From NCBI GenBank assembly GCA_003605035.1, contig QZKJ01000007.1, positions 41,560-105,559 of the forward strand: 64,000 nucleotides of DNA. The letters are read 5' to 3'. The position numbers and the translations under genes are program-made. Of this stretch, positions 4,179 through 62,215 are shown piece by piece. The notes under the pieces were generated by a model. The model was not told where the DNA came from. It made no database searches and saw nothing but the letters and a program-made list of their open reading frames with translations. The first letter of the stretch is position 1; each line of letters begins with the position of its first letter. This DNA comes from Desulfurivibrio sp. (GTDB lineage: Bacteria > Desulfobacterota > Desulfobulbia > Desulfobulbales > SURF-16).

Positions 4179-4192
4179 CTGATCCTCCTCAT

Positions 4193-4250: not shown

Positions 4251-4291
4251 CTCTGCCAAGAAGGACGGCGATGTTATTTTATTGCAACGGC

Positions 4292-4600: not shown

Positions 4601-4605
4601 GATGG

Positions 4606-5004: not shown

Positions 5005-5010
5005 ATCCGC

Positions 5011-6550
<1,540 letters not shown>

Positions 6551-18702: not shown

Positions 18703-19266
18703 GGTCGGCAACTTCCTTGCGGGTAAATTTTATCTCCGGACTTTTTCAGCATTATACTACGCCGCCTGCGCAAGAAAAATAAGTAAAATCTCGGGAAAAT
18801 CGATCCGGCCGCGGATTTGCGCCCGGTAATTTTCGAAAAACCGGAAAAGAGGCGTCGCGGCTGATTATGCCTGATCACTGTATCATAATGGAAAGTTCTA
18901 TAATAACAAATAATTATAATTTTTCACAACTTTTTTTCACAATTTTTTTTTCTGTAAGCTTCCTGTAAGATTTTACCTGTCATATTCAATGATCTCTAAG
19001 ACCGTATAATGCTGACCCGTATGCCAGGGAAAGGACAGTATTCTGCTCGGTCACAAAGGATTGTAAAAGGTTTCAGCGAAAAGGGAAACGGAGATTCCCG
19101 GGAAACGGGGTGAAATGCTGAAACAGAATGAAAAGGATCCTCAATTTACAAGTTCAACATATTGGCAAGGAGGTGGAAACAGGATGGGGGCGTCCCGGTA
19201 ATAAAAGGAAATAAGCCTGACGATACATTCGTGTCAAAAGATGATGAAATGAAAAGGAGAAAATGA

Positions 19267-20367: not shown

Positions 20368-20470
20368 AAGGCACTGAATGACAGATGTTGTAAGTTTTTT
20401 AATTCTTAAATGCCTTGCTGGTTCAGCCGGCGGCAAAATGAGCAGGATAATGATGAAAATGAGGAGCAAA

Positions 20471-22426: not shown

Positions 22427-22467
22427 GCGGCACGCACTTGGCGCGGACTCGTTCTATTTTGCAGCCG

Positions 22468-22493
22468 CCGGCCCGGGATTAATCCCGGGCCGG
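22468..22493 (+). terminator. Perfect 13+13 nt palindrome downstream of the unknown-protein pair
   Basis: The sequence is CCGGCCCGGGATT/AATCCCGGGCCGG, 42 nt after the stop at 22426. The trailing T-run is weak (TGTTGCTT). Confidence 0.5.
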
Positions 22494-22774
22494 TGTTGCT
22501 TACTCCTTGAAGTGTCCATGATTTTGTTCAATTACAGGCTCGATCATCTCAACACCGGGCATCAGGTTTTTCCTCCCTCAATACAAGCACTATGCAGTAA
22601 TCTCTTAACCAATCAGCTTTTTCCTGTCTGACGGATGTAATGCTTGAATTCCGCCCGGTTATGTTGTTTATTGAGCACTGAATCGTCCGGATGTCTGCCT
22701 GTCATGCTGTCCGGCGCTTATTTTTCTTTACTCTTACGTCGACAATGCTGCGCAACCGTTACAGGAGGTAACCA

Positions 22775-40300: not shown

Positions 40301-40435
40301 ATTTGCCGATTGTTTTCACAAAAATAATGTAGTAATGACAGTTGTCTCCAGCCAGTACCACGGGAGACGTGCGTCCAAAATTCGCCTTAATTGCCATATA
40401 TCATTAATAAAATTGTGATGAGAAGGAGGAAAGTG

Positions 40436-44804: not shown

Positions 44805-45698
44805 GTGATAATGACAGCAAAAATTATCAGCGGGACCGAGACCGCTAAAGCCATTCGCGAGGAACTCAAAACCGAAATCGCCGAGTTGAAGGAAAAGCAC
44901 AATGTCGTGCCCGGTCTGGTAACTATTCTTGTCGGTGAGGACCCTGCCTCCCAGTCCTACGTGAGCGCTAAAAATAAAACCGCCCACGCCCTGGGCATCC
45001 ATTCGGAGCAGGTGACTCTTGCCGCGGATAGTAGTGAACAGGAACTTCTTAATCTGATTGACAAATATAATAATGATGAGAAAATTCACGGCATTCTGGT
45101 GCAGCTCCCCCTGCCGAAACATATCAATGAAGCGAAAGTCCTCTATGCCATCAACCCGGACAAGGATGTGGACGGTTTTCATCCGGTCAACGTCGGCAAG
45201 ATGGTGCTGGGCGAACAGTGCTATCTTCCCTGCACACCCCACGGCATCCTTGAACTTTTGACCCGCAGCGGTGTCAATACTAGTGGTGCCGAGGTGGTGG
45301 TCATCGGCCGCAGCAATATTGTCGGCAAACCGATCAGCAACCTCATGCTGCAGAAACGGGACGCCGGCAACGCCACGGTTACCATCTGTCATACCCGCAC
45401 CAGGGACATGGCGGCCCATACCAGACGCGCCGACATCATCATCGCCGCGGTCGGCGTGCCGAAAATGGTCACCGCCGACATGGTCAAGGACGGGGTGGTG
45501 ATTATTGATGTCGGGGTTAACCGCATCGGCAAGACCGCGGACGGCAAGGCGATTCTTGCCGGTGATGTGGATTTTGACGCGGTCAAGGAAAAGGCTGCCG
45601 CCATTACTCCCGTCCCGGGCGGCGTTGGTCCCATGACCATAACCATGTTGATGAAAAATACCGTGCAGGCGGCCAGACTGGCTGCCGGCCTGATATAA
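44805..45698 (+). CDS. folD: Bifunctional methylene-THF dehydrogenase / methenyl-THF cyclohydrolase
   Basis: 297 aa (PGLVTILVGEDPASQSYV, GILVQLPLP, VVVIGRSNIVGKP, TPVPGGVGPMT). Confidence 0.96.
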   Translation: MIMTAKIISGTETAKAIREELKTEIAELKEKHNVVPGLVTILVGEDPASQSYVSAKNKTAHALGIHSEQVTLAADSSEQELLNLIDKYNNDEKIHGILVQLPLPKHINEAKVLYAINPDKDVDGFHPVNVGKMVLGEQCYLPCTPHGILELLTRSGVNTSGAEVVVIGRSNIVGKPISNLMLQKRDAGNATVTICHTRTRDMAAHTRRADIIIAAVGVPKMVTADMVKDGVVIIDVGVNRIGKTADGKAILAGDVDFDAVKEKAAAITPVPGGVGPMTITMLMKNTVQAARLAAGLI

Positions 45699-45717: not shown

Positions 45718-47715
45718 ATGGCAATCTCAAGAAACGGATGTGAAGGCTGTACAGAGATAACCTGCACCTCCACGAAAAATGTTCTTGCCAAAGACATCGC
45801 AAAAAATGTCATTACCGCCTACGACCGGGTAAAGATGCGCGGCATGTCGGCCTGTCTTTTCGGTTCCACCGGCACCTGCTGCCGCAACTGCAATATGGGA
45901 CCCTGCCAGATCATCGATGGCGTTGATGAGATGATCGGCGTCTGCGGCGCCACGGCCGACACGGTGGTTGCCCGCAATTTCTGCCGCACCATTGCCTCCG
46001 GATCCGCCGCCCACACCGACCATGCCCGGGAAATGGTCAAAGGCTTCATTGCCACGGCCAAGGGCGAAACCCCTCATGAAATCAAGGATGTCAACAAGCT
46101 GATGATGCTGGCCAACATCTTCGGCGTGGCCACCGAGGGCAAGGACAAAAATGCCATTGCCCTGGAAATCGGTGAACTCGCCCTGGCGGATTTCGGCAAG
46201 CAGGACGACAAGCCGGTCACCATGCTGAAGCGTGCCCCGAAAAAACGCCAGGAACTGTGGAAACGGCTGGGCATCGAACCGCGCGGCATTGACCGGGAGG
46301 TGGTGGAGATCATGCACCGCACCCACATGGGCGTAGATCAGGAATACCAGAATCTCATGCTGCAGGGGGCCCGCTGCGCCCTGGGCGACGGCTGGGGTTC
46401 CTCCATGCTCTCCACCGAACTGACCGACATCATGTTCGGCACCCCGGTGCCCCGGCGGTCCATCGTCGATCTCGGCGTGCTCAAACCGGACCAGGTGAAT
46501 GTCACGGTGCACGGCCATGAGCCGCTGCTGGCCGAGGCCCTCTGTCTGGCCGCCCAGGACGAGGAACTGCTCGCCCTGGCCCGCAAGGTCGGCGCCAAGG
46601 GCATCAACCTGGCCGGGGTCTGCTGCACCGGCAATGAAATTCTCATGCGGCGCGGCATTCCGGTGGCGGCAGGCTTCATCCAGCAGGAAATGGCCCTGGC
46701 CACCGGCGCCATCGAGGCCATGGTGGTTGATGTGCAGTGCATCATGCAGTCGCTCGCCGAGGTGGCCAAATCCTTCCATACCGACGTGATCACCACCAAT
46801 TACCGGGCCAAGATGCCCGGCGCGGTGCACATCCAGTTTAATGAGGAGGACGCCCTGGGCAGCGCCAAGGAGATTCTCAAAAAAGCCGTCAACAACTTCA
46901 AGAAACGCGGCGAATTCTTTATTCCCCAGGACAACAAGCTCGATGTGGTGGTCGGTTTCAGCCATGAAACGATCAATTACATGCTGGGCGGCCGTTTCCG
47001 TTCAAGCTACCGGCCGCTCAACGACAACATCATCAACGGCAGAATCCGGGGCGTGGCCGCCATTGTCGGCTGTGACAACTACAAGTTTCCGGACAACAAT
47101 CATGAAATCATCGCCCGGGAACTGATCAAGAATGATGTGCTGGTGCTGGCCACCGGCTGCGCGGCCACCGGGCTCGGCCGGGTCGGGCTGGTCCGTCCCG
47201 AGGCCGCCCAGTTTGCCGGCCCCGGTCTGCGCGAGGTGTGCGAGACGGTTGGCATGCCTCCGGTGCTGCACTGCGGATCCTGCGTGGATAACAGCCGGCT
47301 GCTCATTGCCGCCACCGAGATGGTGCGCGAAGGCGGCCTGGGTGACGACATCTCCTCCCTGCCGCTAGCCGGCACCGCGCCGCTGTGGATGAGCGAGAAG
47401 GCGGTGGCCATTGGTCAGTACTTTGTGTCCAGCGGCGCCTATGTCATCTTCCAGAGTCTGCCGCTCACCGGCTCCAAGAATTTCCATAAATTCATGACCG
47501 AGGGAATGGATGAAATTTACGGCGGCTGCTGGGATATTGAAGAGGATCCGTTGAAGCTTGCCCGGAAGATGATTGCCAGGATCGATCTCAAGCGCAAGGA
47601 ACTCGGCATTGACAAGAAACGCGAAAGGGTTCTCTTTGATATGGAGATGCGCCGTGATCTGGGCGCCGGCAGCCCCCTGAAGGATGTCGGCTGCCACGGT
47701 CCGACGCCGGCCTGA
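45718..47715 (+). CDS. cooS: Anaerobic Ni-Fe carbon monoxide dehydrogenase catalytic subunit
   Basis: 665 aa. The N-terminal B/D-cluster Cys pattern is present (CLFGSTGTCCRNCNMGPC), and the C-cluster region has HGHEP, CCTGNE and GSCVDN. Confidence 0.95.
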   Translation: MAISRNGCEGCTEITCTSTKNVLAKDIAKNVITAYDRVKMRGMSACLFGSTGTCCRNCNMGPCQIIDGVDEMIGVCGATADTVVARNFCRTIASGSAAHTDHAREMVKGFIATAKGETPHEIKDVNKLMMLANIFGVATEGKDKNAIALEIGELALADFGKQDDKPVTMLKRAPKKRQELWKRLGIEPRGIDREVVEIMHRTHMGVDQEYQNLMLQGARCALGDGWGSSMLSTELTDIMFGTPVPRRSIVDLGVLKPDQVNVTVHGHEPLLAEALCLAAQDEELLALARKVGAKGINLAGVCCTGNEILMRRGIPVAAGFIQQEMALATGAIEAMVVDVQCIMQSLAEVAKSFHTDVITTNYRAKMPGAVHIQFNEEDALGSAKEILKKAVNNFKKRGEFFIPQDNKLDVVVGFSHETINYMLGGRFRSSYRPLNDNIINGRIRGVAAIVGCDNYKFPDNNHEIIARELIKNDVLVLATGCAATGLGRVGLVRPEAAQFAGPGLREVCETVGMPPVLHCGSCVDNSRLLIAATEMVREGGLGDDISSLPLAGTAPLWMSEKAVAIGQYFVSSGAYVIFQSLPLTGSKNFHKFMTEGMDEIYGGCWDIEEDPLKLARKMIARIDLKRKELGIDKKRERVLFDMEMRRDLGAGSPLKDVGCHGPTPA

Positions 47716-47785: not shown

Positions 47786-50482
47786 ATGAAATCGGGAAGT
47801 CGTTTAGAAAGGATTCTGACCTCCGGGGGCTTTGCCGTGACCGGAGAACTGGGACCGCCTAAAAGCGGGGATCCCGAGGTCGTCAGGAAGAAGGCCGCCA
47901 TACTGCGCGGCCATGTGGACGCGGTCAACATCACGGACTGCCAGACTGCCATTGTCCGCATGTCAAGCATCGCCGCCGGACTCATCGCCCAGCAGGAGGG
48001 CGTGGAGCCGGTCATCCAGATGACCTGCCGTGACCGCAACCGCATCGGCATGCAGAGTGATATCTTAGGCGCCGCGGCCCTTGGTCTGAAAAATCTTCTC
48101 TGTCTGACCGGCGATCACCAGAAATTCGGCAACCACCCCGGCTCCAAGGGGGTATTTGATATGGATTCCATTCAGCTGCTCGGCATGGTCCGCGGCATGC
48201 GGGATGAGAAGAAGTTTCAATGCGGCGAGGCGATCAAATCCGCCGAGCCGCGGCTCTTTCTCGGCTGCGCCGCCAATCCCTTTGCCAATCCCTTTGAGTT
48301 CCGCGCCCCGCGGCTGGCCAAAAAGGTGGCGAGCGGCGCCGACTTCGTGCAAACCCAGATTATCTATAATGTTGAAAAATTCGCCAGGTTCATGGAAATG
48401 GCCCGCGACCTGGGGTTGCCCGAGAAGGTTTATATCCTCGCCGGCGTTACCCCGCCCAAATCGCTGGGCATGGCCCGCTACATGAAAAGTTCGGTGCCCG
48501 GCATGGATGTGACCGACGAGGTGATCAACCGCATGAAGGATGCCGCTGACAAGCAGGAAGAGGGCATCAATATCTGCGTGGATATCATCAATCGGGTCCG
48601 GGAAATCAAAGGGGTTTCCGGCGTGCATATCATGGCCATCGAGTGGGAGGAGGCGGTACCTGAGATCGTCAAGCGCGCCAAGCTCGAACCGCGGCCGGTA
48701 TTTGCCGAGGATGAGCGGCAGCCGGTGCAGGCAAAAGAGGTCATTGAAGTTGTTGCGCCTGCGGTGCAGCCGGCCGCGGCGCCCCCTGCGCTTGACACGG
48801 ACAAGCTGCTGGCTGAGGCCAGAGCAGAGGCGGAAAAAATCATTGCCGGCGCCCGTGCTGAAGTTGAAAAAATGCGAGCCGCAGCTGTTCTGCAAACAAC
48901 AGCCGGCTCAGCCCCAGAATATGAAGATGCAGGAGAGCATGAGATGAATGAAAAAGAACGTCAGATGGCGTTGCAGTCTGTGCAGATGGGTCTGAACGCC
49001 CTGAAAAAGGCCTTTAACCTGAGCGATGAGCAGTTTGAGGCCCTGGCTAGCTTTGCCAGCGCCGAGGCAGTGCTGAAACGCCAGCCGCCTGAAACCGCAA
49101 GCGCTGGATCTGTGATTGCACCAGTTGCCGCCGAGATGGTCAAACCCGCCCCGGATAAGGCGGCAGAAGAGGCCAACAAGGCCGCTGAAGCCAGGGACGC
49201 GGCAGAGGCAAAAAAGGCCGCAGAGGCAAAAGCTGCCGAAGAGGCCAGGAAAGCTGCTGAGGGAAAAGCTGCGGACGAGGCCAGGAAGGCCGCTGCGGCC
49301 AAGGCTGCTGAAGAAGCCAGGAAGGCTGCCGAAGCCAAAGCCGCTGAAGAGGCCCAAAAGGTAGCTGAAGCCAAAAAAACCGCTGATGCCAAAGCTGCGG
49401 AAGAGGCCAAGGCAGCAGAAGAGACCAAAAAGGCTGCTGAGGCAAAGGTAGCAGTCGCGCCTAAGGCCGTTGCCCCTGCCGGCGATCTGGCGGTAGCCGC
49501 GCTGGCCGTTGAAAAAACGCCTTTTGCCGAGCGCGCCAAAAAGATCCCGGCCGCTTCCTATCAGGTCAAATATACGGGACAGATTAAAGAGACGCTGCTC
49601 GGCAGCGGCGATAAGGCAATCAAAGTCGGTGGTGAATCCTCCATGCCCTTCCATCTTTTTGAAGGGGCCATGCCCAATAAGCCGCTGATCGCCATGGACG
49701 TGCTGGATGTGCAGCCCGAGGAGTGGCCGGACTCGCTGGCCCGCCATTTCAGCGGGGTGCTGGATAATCCGCTGGCCTGGGCCAGAAAATGCGTTGATGA
49801 CTACCAGGCGGAAGCACTCTGCCTCTCCCTGGTCAGCACCGATCCCAACGGCATGAACAGGAGCGCCGCGGAGGCGGCCAAGGTCGCCGCCGAGGTGATC
49901 AATAATATCAATGTGCCGATTATTATCTGGGGCTGCGGCAACGCCGACAAGGATACCGAGACGCTGCGGGAAATCACTTCGCTCACCGGCGACAAAAAGG
50001 TGTGCCTGGCGCCCCTTTCCGACAGCAATTACCGCTCCCTGGGCGCCACCGCCATGGCCTTCCAGTATCCCATGGTCGCTGCTTCGCCCATTGATGTCAA
50101 TCTCGCCAAACAGCTCAATATCCTGCTCGAGAACCTGGGGGTTTCCCTGAACTCCGTCATGATGGATCCGTCAGTCGGCGCTCTCGGCTACGGCATCGAG
50201 TATACCTATTCCGTCATGGAGCGCATCAGGCTGGCCGCGCTTACCCAGCAGGATGAAAAACTGCAGGTGCCGATCATCTGCAATCTGGGCCGGGAGGTCT
50301 GGAAGGCCAAGGAGTGTCGGCTTCCCTCTGATGCCGTGCTGGGAGATCAGGAGAGAAGAGGGGTGATGATGGAGGCGATCACTGCCACCTGCATGCTGCT
50401 GTCAGGCGGTGAGGTGCTGATCATGCGGCATCCCAAGGCCATCAATCTCACCAAGTCTCTGATCAACAGCCTGATAAGCTAA
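47786..50482 (+). CDS. Fusion protein: acetogen-type methylene-THF reductase (MetF) domain, a ~280-aa linker with Ala/Lys/Glu repeats, and a corrinoid Fe-S protein small subunit (AcsD/CdhD) domain
   Basis: One uninterrupted 898-codon ORF. Residues 1 to ~300 are MetF-like (VTGELGPPK, NITDCQTAIVRMSS, QMTCRDRNR, LCLTGDH). Residues ~590-898 are AcsD-like (VGGESSMPFHLFEG, IIWGCGNADKD, DPSVGALGYGIEYTYS). Confidence 0.9.
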   Translation: MKSGSRLERILTSGGFAVTGELGPPKSGDPEVVRKKAAILRGHVDAVNITDCQTAIVRMSSIAAGLIAQQEGVEPVIQMTCRDRNRIGMQSDILGAAALGLKNLLCLTGDHQKFGNHPGSKGVFDMDSIQLLGMVRGMRDEKKFQCGEAIKSAEPRLFLGCAANPFANPFEFRAPRLAKKVASGADFVQTQIIYNVEKFARFMEMARDLGLPEKVYILAGVTPPKSLGMARYMKSSVPGMDVTDEVINRMKDAADKQEEGINICVDIINRVREIKGVSGVHIMAIEWEEAVPEIVKRAKLEPRPVFAEDERQPVQAKEVIEVVAPAVQPAAAPPALDTDKLLAEARAEAEKIIAGARAEVEKMRAAAVLQTTAGSAPEYEDAGEHEMNEKERQMALQSVQMGLNALKKAFNLSDEQFEALASFASAEAVLKRQPPETASAGSVIAPVAAEMVKPAPDKAAEEANKAAEARDAAEAKKAAEAKAAEEARKAAEGKAADEARKAAAAKAAEEARKAAEAKAAEEAQKVAEAKKTADAKAAEEAKAAEETKKAAEAKVAVAPKAVAPAGDLAVAALAVEKTPFAERAKKIPAASYQVKYTGQIKETLLGSGDKAIKVGGESSMPFHLFEGAMPNKPLIAMDVLDVQPEEWPDSLARHFSGVLDNPLAWARKCVDDYQAEALCLSLVSTDPNGMNRSAAEAAKVAAEVINNINVPIIIWGCGNADKDTETLREITSLTGDKKVCLAPLSDSNYRSLGATAMAFQYPMVAASPIDVNLAKQLNILLENLGVSLNSVMMDPSVGALGYGIEYTYSVMERIRLAALTQQDEKLQVPIICNLGREVWKAKECRLPSDAVLGDQERRGVMMEAITATCMLLSGGEVLIMRHPKAINLTKSLINSLIS
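49154..49450 (+). repeat. Coding low-complexity repeat (KAAEEA/RKAAEAKAAEE)n within the MetF-AcsD linker
   Basis: The translation reads DKAAEEANKAAEARDAAEAKKAAEAKAAEEARKAAEGKAADEARKAAAAKAAEEARKAAEAKAAEEAQKVAEAKK.... Repetition is also visible at the nucleotide level. Confidence 0.8.
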
Positions 50483-50516: not shown

Positions 50517-52721
50517 ATGTCAAAAATAATCTGTTCTGCTGCTATCCGAGGCGCCCATAAGATCACTGATATGGCCGAGGAGAAATTTGAGGCAGCTTTA
50601 AAGAAATATGGTGCGGAGCAGGCGGTCTCCTTTCCCAATACCGCCTATTTCCTGCCGGTTATCTACAGCATGCTGGGTGCCAAGGTGGAAAAACTGGGCG
50701 ATATGAAGGATATCTTCCAGGAGTGCCGCAAGCTGCTGCCCCCCATGGTGAGCGAGCATAACTGGCTGCCCTATCTCGCCCCGGCCCTTGATGCCGGCAT
50801 GGCCACCTTTTTCGCCGAGGAGATGTATGAGGCGGTCCGCTATCTGGAGCAGCCCGAATACTATACCAAGACCGAGGATCCGACTGCCGGCAATATCTGG
50901 CTGGGCGCGGCGGATGACGTAATCTTCCGCAAACGCGGGGTGGAGTTTGTCGATGGCACGGCCCCCGGCTTTGCCGCCATCATGGGCTCGCCGGCCGACA
51001 AGGAGGTGGCCAGTAAGATCGCCCTGGAACTGCAGGAAAAAAATCTCTACATCTTCATGCATGACCACTCCAACGGGGTGAGAATGCCCGAGCAGCTGGT
51101 AAATAACAACGTTCAGGTCGGCTGGAACACCCGCCTGGTCCCCTTTGGCGACAGCTATACCACCGCGGTTTTCGCCATCGGCTTTGCCTGCCGCGTGGCC
51201 ATGGCCTTCGGCGGCATCAAGCCGGGCGATTACCGGGGCAACCTGATCTACAACAAGGACCGTACCTTTGCCTTTGTCATGGCCTTCGGCCCGGTCAGCG
51301 ACGAGTGGTACGCCAATGCCGCCGGCGCCATCAACTGGGGTTTCCCGACCATTTCCGACTATGATATTCCCGAGGTGCTGCCCACCGGCATCTGCACCTA
51401 TGAGCATGTGGTGAGCAAGGTGCCCCATGAGGAAATCGTCCAGAAGGCCATTGAGGTGCGGGGTCTCAAGGTCAACGTTGCCAAGATCGATATCCCCATG
51501 TCCTTCGGTCCGGCCTTTGAGGGTGAGAGGATCAGGAAGGATGATCTCTACATGGAATGCGGCGGCGGCAGGACCAGCGGCGTCGAGGTGCTCATCTCCA
51601 AGGACATGCACGATGTCGTGGACGGCGAGGTCATCCTCGAGGGCAAGGACATCTGTGACATCTCCCAGGGCCAGAACCTGCCCATCGCCATCCTGGTCGA
51701 GGTGGCCGGCCGCGAGATGCAGTCGGATTTCGAGCCGATCCTCGAGCGTCAGTTCCACCACCTGATCAACTACATCCAGGGCATCATGCACATCGGCCAG
51801 CGCAACATCATGTGGGTCCGCATCGGCAAGGCCGCGGTGGAGAAGGGTTTCTCCTTCAAACACATCGGCAAGGTGCTGCACGGCAAGCTGCATCAGGAGT
51901 TCGGCGCCATTCTCGACAAGGTGCAGGTGAAAATCTATACCGAACAGGCCAAGGTGGAGGAGGTGCAGGAACTGGCCAAGAAGGTCTATGCCGAGCGCGA
52001 CTTGCGGCTGGGCAACATGACCGATGAAACCGAGGAGGTTTTCTACTCCTGCACCCTCTGCCAGTCCTTTGCCCCCAGCCACGTCTGCGTCATCACCCCG
52101 GAAAGGGTGGGCATGTGCGGCGCCTACAACTGGCTGGACGGCAAGGCCTCCTTCCAGATCAACCCCACCGGGCCGAACCAGCCGATCGCCAAGGGTGAAT
52201 GCAGCGATCCGGTGCTGGGCGATTTCGTCGGCATCAACGAGTTCGTCAACCAGGCCTCCCGCGGCGCGGTGCCGGCGGTGAGCTGCTACTCGCTGATGAC
52301 CAACCCCATGACCGCCTGCGGCTGTTTTGAGGCCATTGCCGCCATGCTGCCCCAGTGCAACGGCATCATGGTGGTAAACCGCGACTACATGGGCATGACC
52401 CCCAGCGGCATGAAGTTCACCTCCCTGGCCGGTATGGCCGGCGGCGGGGCCCAGACCCCGGGTTTCATGGGCGTCAGCAAGCACTATCTGACCAGCCCGA
52501 AACTTTTCATGGCCGAAGGTGGTCTTAAAAGAGTGGTCTGGCTGCCCAAGATGCTCAAGGAAGAGCTGAAGGAAAAACTGATGGCGCGCTGCGAAGCCAT
52601 CGGCATGCCGGAGCTTTTTGACATGATCGCTGACGAGGAAGTGGGAACCACCGAAGAGGCGGTACTGGCCTTTCTCAAGGAGAAAGGTCATCCGGCGCTC
52701 AAAATGGAAACAGTTATGTAG
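50517..52721 (+). CDS. acsB: Acetyl-CoA synthase (CO-methylating; A-cluster subunit)
   Basis: 734 aa. The A-cluster ligands are present (CTLCQSFAPSHVC...GMCG, and the Cys-Gly-Cys in MTACGCFE). Confidence 0.96.
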   Translation: MSKIICSAAIRGAHKITDMAEEKFEAALKKYGAEQAVSFPNTAYFLPVIYSMLGAKVEKLGDMKDIFQECRKLLPPMVSEHNWLPYLAPALDAGMATFFAEEMYEAVRYLEQPEYYTKTEDPTAGNIWLGAADDVIFRKRGVEFVDGTAPGFAAIMGSPADKEVASKIALELQEKNLYIFMHDHSNGVRMPEQLVNNNVQVGWNTRLVPFGDSYTTAVFAIGFACRVAMAFGGIKPGDYRGNLIYNKDRTFAFVMAFGPVSDEWYANAAGAINWGFPTISDYDIPEVLPTGICTYEHVVSKVPHEEIVQKAIEVRGLKVNVAKIDIPMSFGPAFEGERIRKDDLYMECGGGRTSGVEVLISKDMHDVVDGEVILEGKDICDISQGQNLPIAILVEVAGREMQSDFEPILERQFHHLINYIQGIMHIGQRNIMWVRIGKAAVEKGFSFKHIGKVLHGKLHQEFGAILDKVQVKIYTEQAKVEEVQELAKKVYAERDLRLGNMTDETEEVFYSCTLCQSFAPSHVCVITPERVGMCGAYNWLDGKASFQINPTGPNQPIAKGECSDPVLGDFVGINEFVNQASRGAVPAVSCYSLMTNPMTACGCFEAIAAMLPQCNGIMVVNRDYMGMTPSGMKFTSLAGMAGGGAQTPGFMGVSKHYLTSPKLFMAEGGLKRVVWLPKMLKEELKEKLMARCEAIGMPELFDMIADEEVGTTEEAVLAFLKEKGHPALKMETVM

Positions 52722-52771: not shown

Positions 52772-54127
52772 ATGGCTCTTACTGGTATACAAATCCTTAA
52801 AATGCTCCCCAAAAAGAATTGCGGGGAGTGCGGGATTCCCACCTGTCTCGCCTTTGCCATGAAAGTTGCCGCCGGACAGGCTGAAATTGAAAAATGCCCT
52901 TATGTTTCCGAGGAGGCCAAAGCGACCATCGGCGAGGCGTCCGCGCCGCCGATCAGGACCATCAAGCTCGGGGCAGGCGAGTCCGCCTTCACCACCGGCG
53001 GCGAGACCTGCATGTTCCGCCATGAAAAACGCTTTGAGAATCCCACCGGCATCGCCGTACTGGTCGGGACGGACATGGCTGAGGCGGACATCGACGGCCG
53101 GCTCAGCCGCTTCAAGCAACTGCGCTATGAGCGGGTCGGCGTGCTGATGAAGGGCAGACTGGTGGCCGTCAAGGACAGCGATGGCGATCAGGGTAAATTT
53201 GTCGCCCTGGTCAACAAGGTGCTGGCCGGCGCGGATGATGCGGGCCTGATCCTCATGAGCGGCAAGCCGGAAAATCTGGCCGCCGGCGCCAAGGCCTGCG
53301 GAGAACGCAAGCCGCTGCTCTATGGCGCCACCGCTGACAATGCCGTTGCCATGGCCGCCATGGCCAAGGAAACCGGCTGTCCCCTGGGTGTGCGCGGCGC
53401 AAGCCTCGATGACAGTGTGGAGATTGCCGAAAAGCTGCTGGCCGAAGGGCTGAAGGATCTGGTCATTGACACTGGCGCCCGCACCATGAAGGCGGCCCTG
53501 GAAAACAATATCGTGGCCCGCCGCTCCGCCATCAAGTCCAAGTTCAAACCCCTGGGCTTTCCGTCCATTGCCTTTCCCTGTGAAATGACCGACGATCCCA
53601 TGCTGGAGGCGATGATCACCTCGGTGCTCATCGCCAAATACGCGGGCATTGTCGTATTGTCCGATCTGCAGGGCGATATCCTCTTTCCTCTGCTCCTTGA
53701 GCAGCTGAACATCTTCACCGATCCCCAGCGGCCCATGGTGGTGCAGGAAGACATTTACAGCGTCAACGGCCCGGCCGAGAATTCGCCGGTGCTGATCACC
53801 TGCAACTTCTCGCTGACCTATTTCATTGTTTCCGGCGAGATCGAAGGCAGCAAGGTGCCCTCCTGGCTGCTGATCAAGGACACCGAGGGCCTTTCCGTGC
53901 TGACCGCCTGGGCGGCAGGAAAATTCGGCGCTGACATGATCGCCCAGTTCATCAAGAAATCCGGCATCATGGACAAGATAAAACATCGCGAACTGATCAT
54001 CCCCGGCTATCTGGCCAGCATCAAGGGCGAGCTTGAGGAAGAGCTGCCCGAGTGGACCATCACCATCGGTCCCCGGGAGGCCGGCCATCTTCCCGCTTTC
54101 CTCAAGGAGTGGAAGCCGGCTGCCTGA
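52772..54127 (+). CDS. acsC: Corrinoid iron-sulfur protein large subunit
   Basis: 451 aa. The N-terminal 4Fe-4S motif is KKNCGECGIPTCLAFAMKV....C, followed by a TIM-barrel and a corrinoid-binding C-terminus. Confidence 0.95.
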   Translation: MALTGIQILKMLPKKNCGECGIPTCLAFAMKVAAGQAEIEKCPYVSEEAKATIGEASAPPIRTIKLGAGESAFTTGGETCMFRHEKRFENPTGIAVLVGTDMAEADIDGRLSRFKQLRYERVGVLMKGRLVAVKDSDGDQGKFVALVNKVLAGADDAGLILMSGKPENLAAGAKACGERKPLLYGATADNAVAMAAMAKETGCPLGVRGASLDDSVEIAEKLLAEGLKDLVIDTGARTMKAALENNIVARRSAIKSKFKPLGFPSIAFPCEMTDDPMLEAMITSVLIAKYAGIVVLSDLQGDILFPLLLEQLNIFTDPQRPMVVQEDIYSVNGPAENSPVLITCNFSLTYFIVSGEIEGSKVPSWLLIKDTEGLSVLTAWAAGKFGADMIAQFIKKSGIMDKIKHRELIIPGYLASIKGELEEELPEWTITIGPREAGHLPAFLKEWKPAA

Positions 54128-54188: not shown

Positions 54189-54214
54189 GTAAATTTGCAG
54201 TTATTACGAATCCA
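54189..54214 (+). promoter_or_regulatory. Conserved 26-nt box, copy 1 (upstream of fdhA)
   Basis: GTAAATTTGCAGTTATTACGAATCCA matches the copy at 58355-58380 at 24 of 26 positions. Confidence 0.5.
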
Positions 54215-54235
54215 ACAGTATATTTTTAGCAAATA

Positions 54236-57200
54236 ATGTCGACAATACATCTTGAAATAAACGGCATGGAGCTTGTCGCCGAGCCCGGCCTGACCATTCT
54301 CGAAGTGGCCAGGCGCTCGGAGATCGACATCCCCTCTCTCTGCTCGGTGAACGGCAAAAACAGCCAGGCGCCGTGCGGCCTCTGTGTCGTTGAGATAGAA
54401 GGCATGGGCGAGCCTGTCCGTGCCTGTGCTACCCCGGCCGAAGACGGCATGAAGATCACCACCTCTTCCCCCGCTCTGGTGAAGATCCGCCAGGACAGGC
54501 TGGCCAGGATTTCCGCCAGCCATTTCGGCGACTGCAAGGCCCCCTGCAATCTGACCTGTCCCGGCCAGATCAATGTGCAGGGTTATATCGCCCATATCAG
54601 CAAGGGTGAATATGAAGAGGCCATGCGGCTCATCATGGAGCGCAATCCCTTTCCCTTTTCCGTCGGACGGGTATGCCCCCGTTTCTGTGAAACCCGCTGC
54701 CGCAGAATTCTGGTGGATGACCCGGTTTCCATCAACCATCTGAAACGCTTTGTGGCAGACTGGTGCATGACCAACCATATCGATCTGAAAATTCCCCGGG
54801 AAAAGGCCACCGGCAAACGGGTGGCCGTGATCGGCGGCGGACCCGCAGGGCTCACCGGCGCCTATTATCTGGCCCGCAAGGGGCATGATGTCACCATTTT
54901 TGAGGCCAATCCCAAGCTGGGCGGCATGCTGCGCTACGGCATCCCCACCTATAAGATTGACCGCAACGTGCTCGATTACGAGACCAACATGATCCTGCGC
55001 ATGGGCATTTCGGTGAAGCTGAGCCAGCGCTGGGGGGTGGATTTCACCCTGCAGGATCTGAAGGATCAGGGTTATCATGCCATCCTGCTGGCCACCGGCA
55101 CCGGGCTGGACCGGCCGCTGGAAATTCCCGGCGGCAGACTGCCCAAGGTGCTGACCGCCACCAAGGTCCTGCGCGATGCCGCGGAAGGCAAACGCATCAA
55201 GTACGGACTGCGCGCCGCGGTCATCGGCGGCAACAATATTGCCATGGAGGTGGCCCGTACCCTGCTGCGCCAGGGGGTGGACCAGGTGACGGTGGTCTAT
55301 CCCCGCTCCCAGGAAGAGATGGTGGCCAACCAGCGCGTCATCCGCGAGGCGGAGAGGGAAGGGGTGCAGTTTCTGCTCATGGCCTCGCCGGTGCAGATCT
55401 GCGAGGTCGACAACGGCGGCCTCAGCGTTGAACTGGTGAGGATGAGACTGGGTGAGCCTGATGCCCGCGGCATCAGGCAGCCGGAGGCTATCCCCGGCAC
55501 CACCAATACCATCATTGTCGATACCCTGGTCACCTCCCTTGGCCAGATGGCCTGCGTGGACGGCTTCAAGGGCGGGGACCTGGAGGAGCAGATCGAGATC
55601 GCTCCCAACAATACCATCAATGCCTCACCGCGGGATTTCACCACCTCGGTGCAGGGCGTCTATGCGGCCGGCGATGCGGTGAACGGCCCCCGCACGGTCA
55701 TCCAGGCCGTGGTCGGCGCCCGCCGGGCCGCGGAAAATATCCATGCCTACATGATGGATGCTCCCAAGGAGGCGGGGGAGAACCGCTTTAATTTCACCCG
55801 CGGCAAAACCTTTGACCAGGTCCATCTGAGCAACTTTGACGGCGTCAATATCAAGCTGCGGGAAAAGATGCCCACCAGGCCTCCCCAGACGGCGGTGCAG
55901 GATTTTGACGTGATCAAGCTCGGCTTCAATGAGCAGATGGCCCGCAAGGAGGCGGAACGGTGTCTCTCTTGCGGCTGCAACGCCTTTGAAAATTGTGATC
56001 TCAAAAGGCTCAACATTGATTTCAATGTCAACATCAATAAAACAGGCATGGGTGAGAAACCGCTCTATAAAAAGGACGATTCCCATCCGGTGCTCAAGGT
56101 GGACCTCAACAAGTGCATCTTCTGCCAGCGCTGCATGCATGCCTGCGAGTATGGCGCGGTCACGGTCACGGCCGGCCATATTGATGCCAATAATGTCGCC
56201 TCACGCCTGCAGCTCGCCTTTAATGACAAATGCGTCAACTGCGGCAAGTGCGCGGAAAACTGCTCCACCGGGGCCCTGACCAAAAAGGTTGCCCTGGTGC
56301 CGGTGATCAGCGAGGCGGTGCGTGATGTGCGCACCACCTGTCCTTACTGCGGGGCCGGCTGTCAGCTTACCCTGCGGGTCAAGGGCAATACCATCATGGA
56401 GGTGACGGCCGATCCTGATCTGGCCCCGAATTACGGCGCCCTGTGTGTCAAGGGCCGTTTCGCCTATGACTTCGTCCGGGACAAGGAACGTCTGACCAGG
56501 CCGCTGGTCAGACGGCACGGCCACCTGGTGGAGACCAGCTGGGATGATGCCCTGGAGATCGTCGCCCGTAATTTCTTTGATCTGAAGGCCATGTACGGGC
56601 CTGATTCCATTGCTGGATTTTCCTGCGCCAGGGCGACCAACGAAGAAAATTATCTGATGCAGAAATTCATGCGGACGGTGATCGGCACCAACAACATCGA
56701 ACATTGTGCAAGGCTTTGACACGCTCCCACGGTGGCCAGTCTGGCCCTCACGTTTGGCAGCGGCGCAATGACCAACTCCATTGCCGATGCCTCCAGGACC
56801 GATCTGTTTCTCATGATCGGCAGCAACCCTGACACCAGTCATCCCACCATCGGCCTGCGCATTCACCAGGCGGTGGACCGGGGCGCGAAACTGATCGTCG
56901 TCGATCCCCGCCGGACACAGCTGGCCGAGCGGGCCGATCTCTGGCTGCGCATCAAGCCGGGCACCGATGTGGCCCTGCTCAACTCCATGATGCAGGTGAT
57001 CATCGAGGAAGATCTGCTGGATAAGCGCTTCGTGGCGGAGCGCACCGAGGATTTCGATGAACTGGAGCGGCTGGTGAAAAAATACCGGCCCTTCATGGTG
57101 GAAAAAATCACCGGCATCCCGGCCGAGCAGATCCGCCAGGCGGCCCGCATGTATGCGGCCCAGGGCCGGCACGCCATTTACCATGGCATGGGCATCACCC

Positions 57201-58351
57201 ATTACGTCACCGGCACCGACCGGGTGAAGAGCATTGCCAACCTCGCCATGCTGTGCGGCAAGGTCGGGGTGGAAGGCGGCGGCTGCAACCCGCTGCGCGG
57301 CCAGAACAATGTGCAGGGCGCCTGCGACATGGGGGCCCTGTTCAATACCCTGCCCGGCTATGCCAGCCTGAGCAACGAAGACCTGTTCGACCGCTATGAA
57401 CGGATGTGGAAGGTCAAGCTGCCCAGGCGTCCCGGCAAACCGGCCACCGAGGTGTGGGACAACATCCTGAAGGGGGAAATTCATTCCCTGTACATCTTCG
57501 GCGAGGACCCGGCAGTGGCGGACGCCAACATCTCCCACGTGCAGGCTGCCCTGGAAAAATGTGATTTCGTGGTGGTGCAGGACATCTTCATGACCAAAAC
57601 CGCCCAGATGGCTGATGTGGTGCTGCCCGCCGCCTGTTTTGCTGAAAAGGACGGCACCTTCACCAGCACCGAGCGCCGGGTGCAGCGGGTGCGCAAGGCA
57701 GTCGACCCGCCCGGGGAAGCCCGGCCGGACTGGAAGATCTTCGGCGATCTCTCCAGGAAAATGGGCTACGAGATGAACTACCGCTCGCCCAGGGAGGTTT
57801 TCGAAGAGGTTTGCACCATTCTGCCCCAGTATGCCGGCTTGAGCTATGAACGGCTGGAGAAAGTGGGCCTGCAGTGGCCGGTGCCCACGGCGGATCATCC
57901 CGGCACCCCGGTCCTGCACACCAGGGAGTTCACCCGCGGCAGGGGCCTTTTTATTCCGGAGGATTATATCCCGCCGGTTGAGGTGGCCGATCAGGAGTAT
58001 CCCCTGCAGTTCACCACCGGACGTGATCTGTCCCGCTACAACTTCAGCAGCATGACCGGCAAGACCCGGGAGATCAATGCCATCAGTCCCGAGTGCTTTG
58101 CCGAGTTCCACCCCGAGGACGCGAAACTTTTCGGCATTGAGGACAAAGATTCGGTACGCTTGACCTCGCGCCGCGGCTCAGTGGTGCTGCGGGCCAAGGT
58201 GACGGACCGCACCCAGCAGGGTACGGTATTTGCCACCTACAACCATGTTGAGGCGCTGGTCAATCTGCTGACCCTGGACGCCCTTGACCGCCTGTCCCGG
58301 ACGCCGGAGTACAAGCTGTGCGCCATCAAGGTGGAAGTGGTTGATGCATAA
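54236..58351 (+). CDS. fdhA: Selenocysteine-containing formate dehydrogenase catalytic subunit fused to N-terminal 2Fe-2S ferredoxin and GltD-like NAD(P)H/FAD modules (UGA-Sec at 56717-56719)
   Basis: Track ORFs 54236..56719 and 56732..58351 are in the same frame and separated only by a TGA. The junction reads [30 protein letters not shown], the FDH active-site motif. The MopB 4Fe-4S motif is CPYCGAGC. The GltD-like part carries VIGGGPAGLTGAYYL. Confidence 0.9.
56734..56746 (+). other. SECIS-like hairpin downstream of the fdhA UGA
   Basis: GGCCA-GUC-UGGCC begins 15 nt after the UGA. This is positionally equivalent to the apical stem-loop of the E. coli fdhF SECIS. Confidence 0.6.
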
Positions 58352-58354: not shown

Positions 58355-58380
58355 GTAAATTTTCAGTTTTTACGAATCCA
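58355..58380 (+). promoter_or_regulatory. Conserved 26-nt box, copy 2 (upstream of hdrA)
   Basis: GTAAATTTTCAGTTTTTACGAATCCA begins 4 nt after the fdhA stop and lies about 80 nt upstream of the hdrA ATG. Confidence 0.5.
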
Positions 58381-58460: not shown

Positions 58461-61400
58461 ATGGGTCACGCAGAAGAAAGTAAATCGGGAGCAGTGCTGG
58501 TCGTAGGCGGCGGAGTCGCCGGCGTCCAGGCGGCCCTCGACCTGACCGAACTCGGCTATTATGTTTATCTGGTTGAAAAATCAGCGGCTGTGGGTGGCGC
58601 CATGGCCCAGCTTGACAAAACCTTCCCAACCAATGACTGCTCACTCTGAATTCTCGCGCCGAAGCTGGTAGAGGCCGGTCGGTCTCCCAATATCGAAATA
58701 CTGAGCAACGCCGATTTCCTTTCCCTGGCTGGCAAGCCCGGGGATTTCCAGGCCAGGATCCGCCTGAACCCCCGCTACATCGATGCGGACAAATGTACAG
58801 CCTGCGGACTGTGCACCCAATACTGCCCGCGGCATATGGTGGATGCCTATAACGAGGGGCTGAAAATCACCCGGCCCATTCATATCGATTATCCCCAGGC
58901 CGTGCCGGCCACCTATTACATTGATCCCGGCGCCTGCCTGCATCTCAAGCATGGCACCTGTAAAATCTGTGTGCCGGTATGCCGCAGCCACGCCATTGAT
59001 TTCAGCCAGCAGCCCGAGGAACGCACCCTGCAGGTCGGGGCGGTGATCATGGCCCCGGGTTTTGGCAAGGTGCCGGATAAGGCCCTGGAGAAATACAGCT
59101 ACGGCAAGCATCCCGACGTGGTCACCAGCATCGAGTTTGAAAGGCTGCTCAATCCTTCCGGCCCCTTCCAGGGCGAGGTCCGCTGCATCTCCGACCATCG
59201 TCATCCGCACAAAATCGCCTTTATTCAGTGCGTCGGCTCCCGGGACATCGGCTGTGACAACGGCTACTGTTCATCGGTCTGCTGCATGTACTCCATCAAA
59301 GAGGCCATGGTGGCCAAGGAGCATGATCCGGACTGTGAGATCACCATCTTCTACATGGACATGCGCACCCAGGGCAAGGATTTTGACGCGGCCCGCACCC
59401 GGGCTGAAGAGCAGTTCGGCATCAAGTTTGTCCGGGCCAAGGTGGCTGATGTCATGCCGTGGGGCAAACAGCTGAAACTGACCTACTCCACCCTGGCCGC
59501 CAGTCACCATTTCGAGGCCTTTGACATGGTGGTCCTCTCCGTCGGGCTTGACTCGCCCAAAAGCGCAGGGGAGCTGGCGCAGATCGGCGGTTTCGCGCTC
59601 AATAAATACGATTTCTGCCAGACCGATACCTTTGCCCCGCTCAATACCAGCAGGGAAGGCATCTTTGTGGCCGGCGCCTTTCAGGGACCGAAAGACATCC
59701 CGGAAAGCGTCACCCAGTCCAGCGCCGCCGCCGGTATTGCCTCAGCCCTGATCAAACAGCAGCGCGGCACCGGCATTGTGCATAAGGCCTATCCCGACGA
59801 ACAGCAGGTCAAGGCCGGGGATGAGGTGCGCATCGGCGTGTTTGTCTGCCGCTGCGGCATCAACATTGCCGGTACGGTTGATGTGCCGCAGGTGGTCGAT
59901 TATGCCGGCAACATGGAAAACGTCGTCTATTTCAGCGACAGCCTGTACAGTTGCTCCCAGGATGCCCAGGAGGTGATCAAGGAGCAGATCAAAAAACACA
60001 AGTTGAATCGCATCGTCATGGCCGCCTGCTCGCCGCGGACCCACGAGCCGCTTTTCCAGGAGACCCTGAAAGACGCCGGCCTCAACCGCTCGCTGTTTGA
60101 GATGGTCAATATCCGCGACCAGTGCTCCTGGGTGCATGCCAATGAACCGGACGAGGCAACGGATAAGTCCAGGGATCTGGTCCGCATGGGGGTTGCCAAG
60201 GCCCGGCTGAGCCAGCCCCTGCCCGAACAGACCGTGCCCGTCACCCCCCAGGCCCTGATTATCGGCGGCGGGGTGGCTGGCCTTACCGCGGCCGAGAACC
60301 TGGCCAATCAGGGGTTCCAGTGCTATCTCATTGAAAAAAATGACAGACTGGGCGGTCATGCGGTCAAGGCCCAGGATACCCTGCAGGGCGAAAACACCGC
60401 GAAGATGATGCAGGAACTGATTCATCGCGTGCAGCAGCATGAGAAGATCGAGGTGATGGCCGGGGCCGAGCTGGCGGCGGTCAACGGTTTTGTCGGCAAC
60501 TTTTCCTCGGTGGTCAAAATGACCAGAGGCACTGAGGAGACGGAACAGACCATTGATCACGGGGTGATTATCATCGCCACCGGCGGCAGGGAACACCGGC
60601 CGGACAGGTATCTGCTCGGTCAGGTGAAAAAGGTCGTCACCCAGCAGGAGCTGGAGACCCGTCTGGCCGGCAAGGCCAGGGACCGGGCTCCGGAATCGGT
60701 GCTGATGATCCAGTGCGCCGGTTCCCGCGGGGATGATCTCAAGTACTGCAGCAAGGTATGCTGTAATACGGCCGTAAAAAATGCCTTGAAGATCAAGGAG
60801 ATCAATCCCGCCTCCCAGGTGATTGTCCTGTACCGGGATATGCGCACCTATGGGTATGCCGAGGACGCCTATCAGCTGGCCCGCGAAAAAGGGGTGGTTT
60901 TCATCCCCTACGAGCTGGACCGCAAGCCCGAGGTGGAAAAGAAGGGCAACAGGGTGCAGGTCAACTTCTTTGATCCCATCCTGCAGGAAGATGTCTCGCT
61001 CAGTCCCGAACTGATTGTGCTCAGTGTCGGCATTGTGCCGGAGGATACGGAAAACCTCAGCAAGCTGCTGAAGATCCCGGTCAATGAAAACAAATTCTAT
61101 CTGGAGGCCCACGTTAAACTGCGGCCGGTGGAGCTTGCCGTGGATGGCGTCTATGTCTGCGGGCTGGCCCATTCCCCCAAACCCCTGGACGAGGTGATTG
61201 TCCAGGCCCAGGCCGCGGCTGCCAAGGCCTCCATCCCGCTGATCAAGGGCTTTGTCTCCGTTGAGCCGATCGTCTCCTCGGTGGACCAGGAGATCTGTAT
61301 CGGCTGCGGCATCTGCGCCGGCCTCTGTCCCTATCAGGCAATCCAGATGATCAAGGTGGACAACAAAAAGAAGGCGGAAACCATTGCCGCCTCCTGCAAG

Positions 61401-61505
61401 GGGTGCGGCATCTGCTCTTCCCGCTGCCCGACCTTTGCCATCTCCATGGGCGGTTTTACCCGGGAACAGATCAATGCCCAGATCAAGGCGTTCGGGGAAA
61501 TTTGA
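58461..61505 (+). CDS. hdrA: Selenocysteine-containing heterodisulfide reductase subunit A-like flavoprotein, tandem double-HdrA architecture (UGA-Sec at 58647-58649)
   Basis: Track ORFs 58461..58649 and 58836..61505 are in the same frame. My hand translation across the gap gives ...[28 protein letters not shown]..., the HdrA NDCSMC(I) motif with U at the second Cys. There are two GxGxxG modules ([15 protein letters not shown] at aa 14 and [15 protein letters not shown] at about aa 600), several ferredoxin CxxCxxCxxxCP motifs, and the internal CRCGINI domain. Confidence 0.9.
58671..58686 (+). other. SECIS-like hairpin downstream of the hdrA UGA
   Basis: GAGGCC-GGUC-GGUCUC forms a 6-bp stem (including one G-U pair) with a GGUC loop, as in E. 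coli fdhF. It begins 21 nt after the UGA. Confidence 0.5.
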
Positions 61506-61615: not shown

Positions 61616-62215
61616 ATGACCATTGAAGAATTCAACCCCAAGATCCTGGGGTTTCTCTGTAACTGGTGCTGTTACGCCGCCGCCGATGCGGCAGGGGTCT
61701 CCCGTTACCAGTATCCGCCCAACCTGCGCACCATCAGGGTCATGTGCACCGGACGCATCGACCCCGCCTTTATCCTGCAGGGTTTTGCCGAGGGCGCGGC
61801 CGGCATCTTCACCGGCGGCTGACAGCTTGGTGAATGCCATTACCAGGTTGGTAATTACGACGCCATGAGTGTCAATGCGCTGGTCAAGCGGGTGCTGGAG
61901 GGCATCGGGGTAAATCCCGCCCGTTATAATCTGCAGTGGGCCTCAGCTGCCGAGGCCCCACGCTTTGTCAAGCTCATCACCGAGTTTACCAAAAAGATTC
62001 GCGAGCTGGGGCCGCTCGGTCATGCCGAGGGCATCAAGCCCGATGAGCTCAAGGCGCGGATCAACAAGGCAGTTGAGCTGGTCAACAGCCAGAAGCTGCG
62101 CATGAGCTTCGGCACCACTACCAGGGCCCTGCGCAAGGACAATGATTACAGCGATGCCCATATCGTGGAAGTGATTGATGCCAAGCTGGGCAAGGCCATT
62201 GCCGGCGGTCTGTAA
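61616..62215 (+). CDS. mvhD: Selenocysteine-containing MvhD/VhuD-like [2Fe-2S] electron-transfer protein (UGA-Sec at 61820-61822)
   Basis: Track ORFs 61616..61822 and 61865..62215 are in the same frame. The junction reads ...GAAGIFTGG-U-QLGECHYQVGNY, the MvhD GCxxGxCHY motif with U at the first Cys. The N-terminus is also MvhD-like (KILGFLCNWCCY...RVMCTGRIDP). Confidence 0.88.
61839..61855 (+). other. SECIS-like hairpin downstream of the mvhD UGA
   Basis: ATTACC-AGGTT-GGTAAT begins 16 nt after the UGA. Confidence 0.5.

Follow-up and report, generated by a model that had tools for sequence, protein, structure and literature searches.

An in-frame TGA codon and a probable fused selenocysteine formate dehydrogenase gene in a Desulfurivibrio contig

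Introduction

The 64-kb stretch of Desulfurivibrio sp. DNA analysed here (the window, 64,000 nucleotides, in which all coordinates are given) contains two neighbouring open reading frames (ORFs) that lie in the same frame, 54236..56719 (827 residues) and 56732..58351 (539 residues), the second with a nominal GTG start. The question raised by this locus is whether these are two genes, or a single gene in which an internal TGA is read as selenocysteine (Sec). We conclude that 54236-58351 is very probably one gene, fdhAB, encoding a cytoplasmic formate dehydrogenase (FDH)/CO2 reductase with Sec at a molybdenum- or tungsten-pterin (Mo/W-pterin) site, and with FdhB fused N-terminal to FdhA. The division into two ORFs is an artefact of gene calling, the Sec UGA having been taken as a stop. 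The conclusion depends on the following features.

54236..58351, + strand: fdhAB, an FdhB-FdhA fusion with predicted Sec at residue 828 (translation, Pfam, TIGR01591, full-length Cys-type homologues of 1358-1392 residues)
56717..56719, + strand: proposed UGA Sec codon, residue 828 (TGA in 68 loci, TGC/TGT in 10)
56714..56772, + strand: candidate selenocysteine insertion sequence (SECIS) element (Rfam RF01989 SECIS_3, model positions 1-59 of 59)
56734..56746, + strand: apical hairpin GGCCA-GUC-UGGCC, whose loop contains G and U (pairing in 53/53 Sec-type versus 4/10 Cys-type sequences)

The reading frame and its start

The ATG at 54236, the TGA at 56717-56719 and the TAA at 58349-58351 share one frame, which gives 1371 residues and a stop, with the TGA as its sole internal stop codon. 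A first-pass annotation of this DNA had proposed a single 1371-codon selenoprotein gene, in which this TGA alone interrupts the two ORFs and the frame continues unchanged. Translation confirms the frame, and the selenoprotein is supported by the Sec/Cys column, the full-length SECIS_3 match and the covariation of the hairpin.

The same annotation had remarked that the ATG lacks a Shine-Dalgarno sequence, and indeed none precedes it. The start position is the same in 24 of the 26 relatives checked, with a leader that is AU-rich and has no Shine-Dalgarno sequence (54190-54235 in the window). In the two exceptions (L021 and L022), no start codon stands where the alignment prints the start, and the leader sequence is repetitive and less AU-rich. 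Because so many of the relatives share this kind of leader, the missing Shine-Dalgarno sequence is, on this comparison, a conserved trait and not the mark of a mis-called start.

It is worth adding that the window contains exactly two copies of a 20-nt motif, TTnCAGTTnTTACGAATCCA (+ strand), one at 54195-54214, 22 nt before the fdhAB start, and one at 58361-58380, 10 nt after the fdhAB stop and upstream of hdrL. The chance expectation in the window is 0.03 matches. When sought in the relatives, the motif was present only upstream of fdhA in three close ones (L002, L003 and L007).

Probable selenocysteine at residue 828

FdhA is the classic bacterial selenoprotein, and the commonest. The codon for residue 828 was scored in 78 FDH copies, these being the related loci together with the window. 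It is TGA in 68 of them, a degree of conservation that is beyond chance, and TGC or TGT in the other 10; downstream, about 543 further codons follow without a stop. In a wider search, 5195 of the 8000 candidates scored were homologues with E <= 1e-30, and the 120 best were examined for this column. Seventy of these end at about 825 residues, 69 of them stopping exactly at ...HCARL, and 50 are full length (1304-1392 residues), 49 of them with Cys at the position of residue 828. The Cys/Sec column for which the first-pass annotation had wanted the merged protein inspected is thus present, both among proteins and among loci.

The protein evidence is continuous across the codon. Pfam identifies the Molybdopterin domain (752-1174) as a single hit that covers profile positions 1-352 of 353 and spans residue 828. 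The residues around the codon, CARL-U-H at 824-829, had been recognised from the outset as the active-site motif of molybdopterin FDHs, and they align to active FDHs: the residue opposite 828 is Cys in FdhF of the hydrogen-dependent CO2 reductase (HDCR; 7qv7_S) and in FdsA (6tg9_A), and a non-standard residue X in the F420-dependent FDH (9t1s_L).

The next two genes downstream, hdrL and mvhD, each have a conserved in-frame TGA of their own. Sec forms of HdrA/HdrL, of MvhD and of cytoplasmic FdhA are documented in Desulfobacterium autotrophicum. Given that the evidence for the fdhAB codon is joined by TGAs in hdrL and mvhD at the known Sec positions of HdrA and MvhD, the organism very probably decodes UGA as Sec.

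The candidate SECIS hairpin

An Rfam scan in E-value mode found a match to RF01989 SECIS_3 over the full length of the model (E 1.4e-13 to 3.5e-13). Within it lies the hairpin that had been reported to begin 15 nt past the TGA, and which is located at 56734-56746. Its apical sequence, gGCcAGUCUgGCc, is identical to the RF01989 consensus, and in both the hairpin comes directly after the UGA. The SECIS loop of Escherichia coli fdhF is GGUC, and the hairpin in the window likewise has a G and a U in its loop. SelB would use this hairpin to insert Sec-tRNA at the UGA.

The case for the hairpin comes from the relatives. All five apical pairs form in each of 53 distinct Sec-type sequences, versus 4 of 10 Cys-type sequences (Fisher p 3e-6). 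The loop G32 is invariant and U33 is found in at least 90% of the Sec-type sequences; 7 of the 10 Cys-type sequences have no loop U. Covariation was analysed in an alignment of 52 distinct Sec-type sequences, which are related to one another. In these, pair 27:39 changes from GC to UA or AU and pair 30:36 from CG to AU, the changes being compensatory and synonymous, and pair 31:35 is AU in some sequences and GU in others. Both sides had changed in 10 cells, where 1.6 were expected, and none of 500 shuffles gave as many. The same apical helix came out of RNAalifold.

Domain architecture of FdhAB

Pfam was run on the translation with Cys in place of the stop, and seven domains were found. Together with the motifs identified by other means, they give the following arrangement.

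Residues 3-78 (54242..54469, + strand): Fer2_4, N-terminal [2Fe-2S] domain (Cys36, 47, 50 and 64; Pfam)
54515..55711, + strand: GltD/NfnB-like module with two [4Fe-4S] motifs and sites for flavin adenine dinucleotide (FAD) and NAD(P)H (Pfam, PDB matches)
Residues 94-181, + strand: Fer4_20 (Pfam)
Residues 195-492, + strand: Pyr_redox_2 (Pfam), with GGGPAG (FAD) at 200-205 and GGNNIA (NAD(P)H) at 331-336
Residues 576-587 (55961..55996, + strand): four-Cys motif CLSCGCNAFENC (motif search; outside every Pfam hit)
Residues 621-680 (56096..56275, + strand): two ferredoxin-type [4Fe-4S] motifs, CIFCQRCMHAC and CVNCGKCAENC (Pfam Fer4/Fer4_9)
56327..58324, + strand: predicted Mo/W-bis-pterin catalytic domain (Pfam; Cys702, 705, 709 and 737; Sec828-His829; Arg1021 in RGQNNVQG)
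Residues 698-747, + strand: Molybdop_Fe4S4 (Pfam)
Residues 752-1174, + strand: Molybdopterin (Pfam)
Residues 1257-1363, + strand: Molydop_binding (Pfam)

This agrees with the first-pass description of a 2Fe-2S domain and a GltD-like module with two dinucleotide-binding motifs in the first ~560 residues (Pfam, NCBIfam and the GGGPAG and GGNNIA motifs), followed by two ferredoxin-type clusters (the Fer4 dicluster at 621-680) and a MopB domain (the Molybdopterin domains). The alignments to the FdhF/FdhA and GltD/NfnB families that it had recommended point the same way at both ends of the protein. The N-terminal [2Fe-2S] region aligns to the N-termini of FdsA (6tg9_A) and NfnA (9bov_A), and the GltD/NfnB-like module has PDB matches to NfnI-L, GltD, StnC and NfnA. 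The FdhB/GltD-like model PRK12814 matches residues 1-638 with a score of 535, under its own cutoff of 916. For the catalytic part, TIGR01591 (FDH alpha) scores 857.1 bits against a cutoff of 666.25, over residues 700-1366 and profile positions 1-672 of 672.

The four-Cys motif CLSCGCNAFENC was not in the earlier list. The segment aligned to it is conserved in NfnA (9bov_A), and it probably binds a sixth [4Fe-4S] cluster that connects the GltD-like half with the FDH half. The Cys motifs then amount to one [2Fe-2S] and six [4Fe-4S] clusters, these being two in Fer4_20, one at CLSCGCNAFENC, two of the ferredoxin type and one in the pterin domain.

In the catalytic domain, RGQNNVQG is found at 1021-1028; its Arg, the His that follows Sec, and Cys702, 705, 709 and 737 all align to 7qv7_S, 9t1s_L and 6tg9_A. 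HCARL[U/C]H and RGQNNVQGACDMGAL also align with the active FDHs, and NfnA (9bov_A) is deleted at that site. Judged by these alignments, the pterin sites and active-site motifs of the catalytic domain are intact.

Relatives and known systems

The nearest genomic copies, with 92-94% identity across the N-terminal 827 residues, come from metagenome-assembled genomes (MAGs) labelled Desulfobulbaceae, Proteobacteria and uncultured delta proteobacterium. A second tier, at 66-71% identity, is made up of MAGs labelled Desulfurivibrionaceae, Desulfobulbaceae and Desulfurivibrio. The copies from Desulfurivibrio MAGs (L026, L029 and L059) carry the TGA and are 66-67% identical. The window organism is of another lineage than Desulfurivibrio dismutans, described below, its closest MAG copies being those at 92-94%.

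In a further set of loci, in MAGs labelled Desulfobacterales, Anaerolineales and Phycisphaerae (L063-L078), FdhB and FdhA are separate and adjacent, with either Sec or Cys. One of these (L065, 2479-7219) has an FdhB of 661 residues followed by an FdhA of 345 + U + 540 residues with the same Sec codon. Since the lineages with split genes carry either residue, the distribution shows, at the level of gene sequences, repeated switching between Sec and Cys and a fusion event.

A fused enzyme of this kind has been described before. The 2025 study of Desulfurivibrio dismutans AMeS2 reported a cytoplasmic 'fused FdhAB' (RS08735) containing domains of the Fdh, NAD(P)H/FAD and ferredoxin kinds, with HdrA/HdrL (RS08730) and MvhD (RS08725) after it, co-located and co-expressed with Wood-Ljungdahl genes, and proposed a link of FdhAB with HdrA/HdrL and MvhD; selenocysteine in FdhAB is not mentioned there (PMC12142623). 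The cluster in the window has the same layout, FdhB and FdhA in one polypeptide with hdrL and mvhD after it, beside Wood-Ljungdahl genes. By description, on which alone the two were compared, the D. dismutans locus resembles that in the window in its downstream neighbours, its upstream Wood-Ljungdahl genes and its order, Desulfobulbales.

Two-subunit enzymes have the same module order, a GltD-like FdhB and a Sec FdhA, and the same role in the methyl branch, whereas in the window both are parts of one polypeptide. They include the FdhA/FdhB of Moorella thermoacetica, an NADPH-dependent alpha2beta2 W/Se formate dehydrogenase, whose beta subunit, FdhB, we take to be GltD-like. In D. autotrophicum, FdhB-FdhA gene pairs adjoin hdrL/hdrA and mvhD.

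Among solved structures, the catalytic domain matches E. coli FdhH (1AA6), HDCR FdhF (7QV7), the F420-FDH (9T1S) and FdsA (6TG9) with E-values of 1e-177 to 1e-208. All share with FdhAB the motif HCAR[LV]-[U/C]-H, the Arg of RGQNNVQG and the [4Fe-4S] motif, but none of these chains has the GltD-like NAD(P)H module found in FdhAB. The closest relatives of the whole architecture are NfnA (9bov_A, query 3-1037) of Caldicellulosiruptor saccharolyticus NfnABC (9BOV/9BP5) and StnC (8oh5_C, query 1-1035) of Sporomusa ovata StnABC (8OH5/8OH9), which contain one [2Fe-2S] cluster, six [4Fe-4S] clusters and FAD. Cryo-electron microscopy showed that in these proteins NADPH electrons reach a NuoEF-like bifurcating module from FAD by way of the clusters, and that a two-cluster side branch leads into a pterin-less Fdh-like domain, which was called an evolutionary remnant. 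StnC and NfnA share with FdhAB the cluster count and the order of [2Fe-2S] domain, GltD/NfnL-like FAD-NADPH module and NuoG/Fdh-like part. They have no pterin and no Sec/Cys motif, their branch is a dead end and they dock to NuoEF-like subunits, whereas FdhAB has a complete catalytic domain.

Proposed electron path

Because its cofactor motifs match the one [2Fe-2S] cluster, six [4Fe-4S] clusters and FAD of StnC and NfnA, it is reasonable, by analogy, that the whole path from NAD(P)H to CO2/formate is contained in one polypeptide. NAD(P)H, probably NADPH, would reduce the FAD of the GltD/NfnB-like module by hydride transfer. Single electrons would then travel along the module's two [4Fe-4S] clusters, the cluster at 576-587, those of the ferredoxin type and lastly the one in the pterin domain to the Mo/W-Sec centre, an order modelled on that in StnC and NfnA. 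The Mo/W-Sec centre would reduce CO2 to formate in a reversible reaction. In vivo the enzyme may reduce CO2 for autotrophic growth or may oxidise formate. Its role in the cell would be to feed the Wood-Ljungdahl methyl branch with formate; the genes of that pathway lie around fdhAB. On this path the cluster branch of FdhAB would be the productive form of the dead-end 'remnant' in the pterin-less proteins, and the N-terminal [2Fe-2S] cluster, which in StnC and NfnA is the exit to the partner module, may here connect to MvhD and HdrL.

Genomic context

The neighbours of fdhAB are acsC upstream and hdrL and mvhD downstream; NuoE/NuoF-like genes are not adjacent to it. The features of the cluster are these.

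40391-42199: fhs (domain scan)
44805-45698: folD (domain scan)
45718-47715: cooS (domain scan)
47786-50482, + strand: metF-acsD fusion (898-residue ORF)
50517-52721: acsB (domain scan)
52772-54127: acsC (domain scan), directly upstream of fdhAB
58461..61505, + strand: hdrL/hdrA-like, 1014 codons, with an in-frame TGA at 58647-58649 (codon 63); best NCBIfam match HdrA2
61616..62215, + strand: mvhD, 199 codons, with an in-frame TGA at 61820-61822 (codon 69, IFTGG-U-QLGECHY)

The ORF called at 58836..61505 is only the tail of hdrL. The same TGA and motif are found in hdrL downstream of fdhA in all 43 Desulfobulbales-type loci with a long enough flank, and also in L079, a 478-kb metagenomic contig. 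In the window a hairpin, GAGGCC-GGUC-GGUCUC, lies at 58671-58686, within the minimum-energy fold. For mvhD, two alternative downstream hairpins are possible, and the minimum-energy fold differs from the hairpin seen by eye. An Rfam E-value scan of the hdrL/mvhD region gave no match to a SECIS family.

The L079 contig has the same three TGAs, and its N-terminal FDH fragment is 91% identical. Its fdhAB is called as pieces of 827 and 536 residues, and its mvhD is split at the same TGA, with Pfam FlpD on both halves. The gene order, including fdhAB-hdrL-mvhD, is the same as in the window from an ATPase gene onward. Genes for HdrB and HdrC were not seen in the cluster, either in the window or in L079.

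This ATPase gene (a type II/IV secretion ATPase, T2SSE and MshEN domains with a C-terminal cyclic-nucleotide-binding domain; 42370-44589, + strand) lies between fhs and folD, and in L079 it stands directly before folD and is cut there by the start of the locus. The MetF-AcsD ORF (47786-50482) matches methylenetetrahydrofolate reductase at residues 7-298 and AcsD/CdhD at 604-843, with a linker of about 300 residues that has no domain hit; a matching fusion is called at 899 residues in L079.

Elsewhere in the window, an N-type ATPase operon at 536-6483 (- strand) encodes AtpR and the 'gene 1' protein together with alpha, beta, epsilon, a and b subunits. The region 18000-22500 has a G+C content of 0.50-0.53, against about 0.57-0.60 elsewhere, and a strongly positive GC skew of 0.12-0.135. 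Pfam gave no match for the two large ORFs there, at 19267-20367 and 20378-22426, and the region may be foreign DNA.

Alternative readings

Several observations weigh against the reading of fdhAB as a Sec-containing, NAD(P)H-dependent enzyme, most of them concerning the SECIS element. An Rfam scan of the window in gathering mode gave no match. In E-value mode the covariance-model match that the first-pass annotation had called for is full length with E ~1e-13, but its score of 58 bits is below the curated gathering score of 63, a shortfall of 5 bits that is due to mismatches in the lower stem, where five pairs are non-canonical. Across relatives only 60% of cells in the Rfam lower stem are paired and no pair changes on both sides. 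RNAalifold proposes a somewhat different lower stem, and the Rfam one is poorly supported in this clade. In the apical helix, no more than about three independent events account for the compensatory changes. The fold energy of the hairpin is no better than that of shuffled sequence (z = 0.27 and 0.07), and stability was for this reason dropped as an argument, so that support for the hairpin is, on the sequences at hand, comparative and not thermodynamic. Val-Ala-x-Leu-Ala in GC-rich preferred codons yields such a hairpin almost by default, and both the Rfam score and the conservation of the hairpin are in part due to conserved protein coding.

The remaining points concern machinery and function. 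Pfam and NCBIfam scans of the window ORFs (42 further ORFs in 64 kb) found no selA, selB or selD, and ARAGORN found no tRNA, and hence no tRNA-Sec, in the window. Beside the second Rossmann motif the protein has YPRS, versus the usual YRR, as in NfnA, and a preference for NADPH over NADH is not established. The formate/CO2 activity and the metal, Mo or W, are predictions. Finally, the invariable linkage to hdrL and mvhD is a hint that an NADPH enzyme acting by itself may be an oversimplification.

This linkage leads to the strongest alternative, that FdhAB, HdrL and MvhD form one soluble complex, in which CO2/formate is coupled to flavin-based bifurcation or confurcation at an HdrA-type flavin, with NAD(P)H and a second carrier, ferredoxin or DsrC, as the other partners. 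The model for it is the Fdh-MvhD/VhuD-Hdr complex of methanogens. The proposal is consistent with the Sec-type hdrL that follows fdhAB in 43 of 43 loci, with the repetition of the fdhAB-hdrL-mvhD order in L079, with the FdhB-FdhA genes beside hdrL/hdrA and mvhD in D. autotrophicum, and with the use of the N-terminal [2Fe-2S] cluster as the exit to a partner module in StnC and NfnA; in D. dismutans the order recurs, the genes are co-expressed and the link has been proposed (PMC12142623). On the other hand, gene order is no proof of a physical complex, FdhAB has a complete NAD(P)H input module and needs no other donor, and HdrB and HdrC are missing from the cluster as seen here. On balance we regard such a complex as possible but doubtful. 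The more specific version, in which electrons would pass from the FdhAB [2Fe-2S] cluster through MvhD to the HdrA-type flavin, making an Hdr-coupled bifurcating CO2 reductase that joins NADPH, CO2/formate and a third carrier (ferredoxin or DsrC), appears a little less likely again. If true, carbon fixation in Desulfobulbales would be linked directly to the oxidation or disproportionation of sulfur. A stand-alone NAD(P)H-dependent enzyme leads over an Hdr-coupled complex, which we hold to be the less likely of the two.

A second alternative is that the protein is the NADPH-input subunit of a bifurcating transhydrogenase of the Stn/NfnABC type (Bfu), with its FDH-like domain a structural remnant. 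The best structural matches to the whole architecture, NfnA 9bov_A and StnC 8oh5_C, do have the same domain order and number of clusters. However, the pterin site is missing from StnC and NfnA, which fall short of FdhAB by about 200 residues, NfnA being deleted at HCARL-U-H, whereas the protein in the window has full Molybdopterin and Molydop_binding domains and exceeds the TIGR01591 cutoff; moreover, the neighbours of the gene are acsC and hdrL instead of genes for the NuoE/NuoF-like StnAB/NfnBC, and a costly Sec codon would not persist in a dead site. We rejected this assignment on the intact active site and the lack of adjacent partner genes, and consider it highly improbable.

Least probable of all, to the point of being negligible, is that the TGA really ends translation, arises from a sequencing error or marks a lesion in a pseudogene, leaving two separate or dead ORFs: public gene callers do split the gene likewise (827 + 536 residues in L079), some database entries name the N-terminal piece 'FAD-dependent oxidoreductase' and the second ORF has its nominal GTG start at 56732, but the same TGA with an intact downstream frame recurs in 68 independent assemblies, Cys stands in the same column in 10 loci and 49 proteins, one Pfam domain covers the codon, a SECIS match is present, and a split would part the catalytic domain from its metal ligand and [4Fe-4S] cluster.

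Significance

The FdhB-FdhA fusion and its HdrL and MvhD neighbours are already published, and the Rfam consensus is nearly this SECIS sequence, so that reading fdhAB as a single selenoprotein gene is a sound repair of a gene-calling artefact and not a surprise to specialists. The repair has consequences, since gene callers leave three consecutive genes, fdhAB, hdrL and mvhD, as six fragments. Because the same miscall is found in dozens of public Desulfobulbales MAGs, pathway reconstructions may score FDH as missing or mislabel it 'FAD-dependent oxidoreductase'. In this organism the correct reading restores the first enzyme in the Wood-Ljungdahl pathway's methyl branch.

FdhAB is predicted to be a compact, single-chain NAD(P)H-to-CO2 reductase. 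The fused enzyme would also be the catalytically intact counterpart of StnC and NfnA, and would be a good target for finding the original role of the remnant branch in those proteins. The remaining interest lies in the biochemistry of the fused enzyme and of the three-selenoprotein operon to which it belongs.

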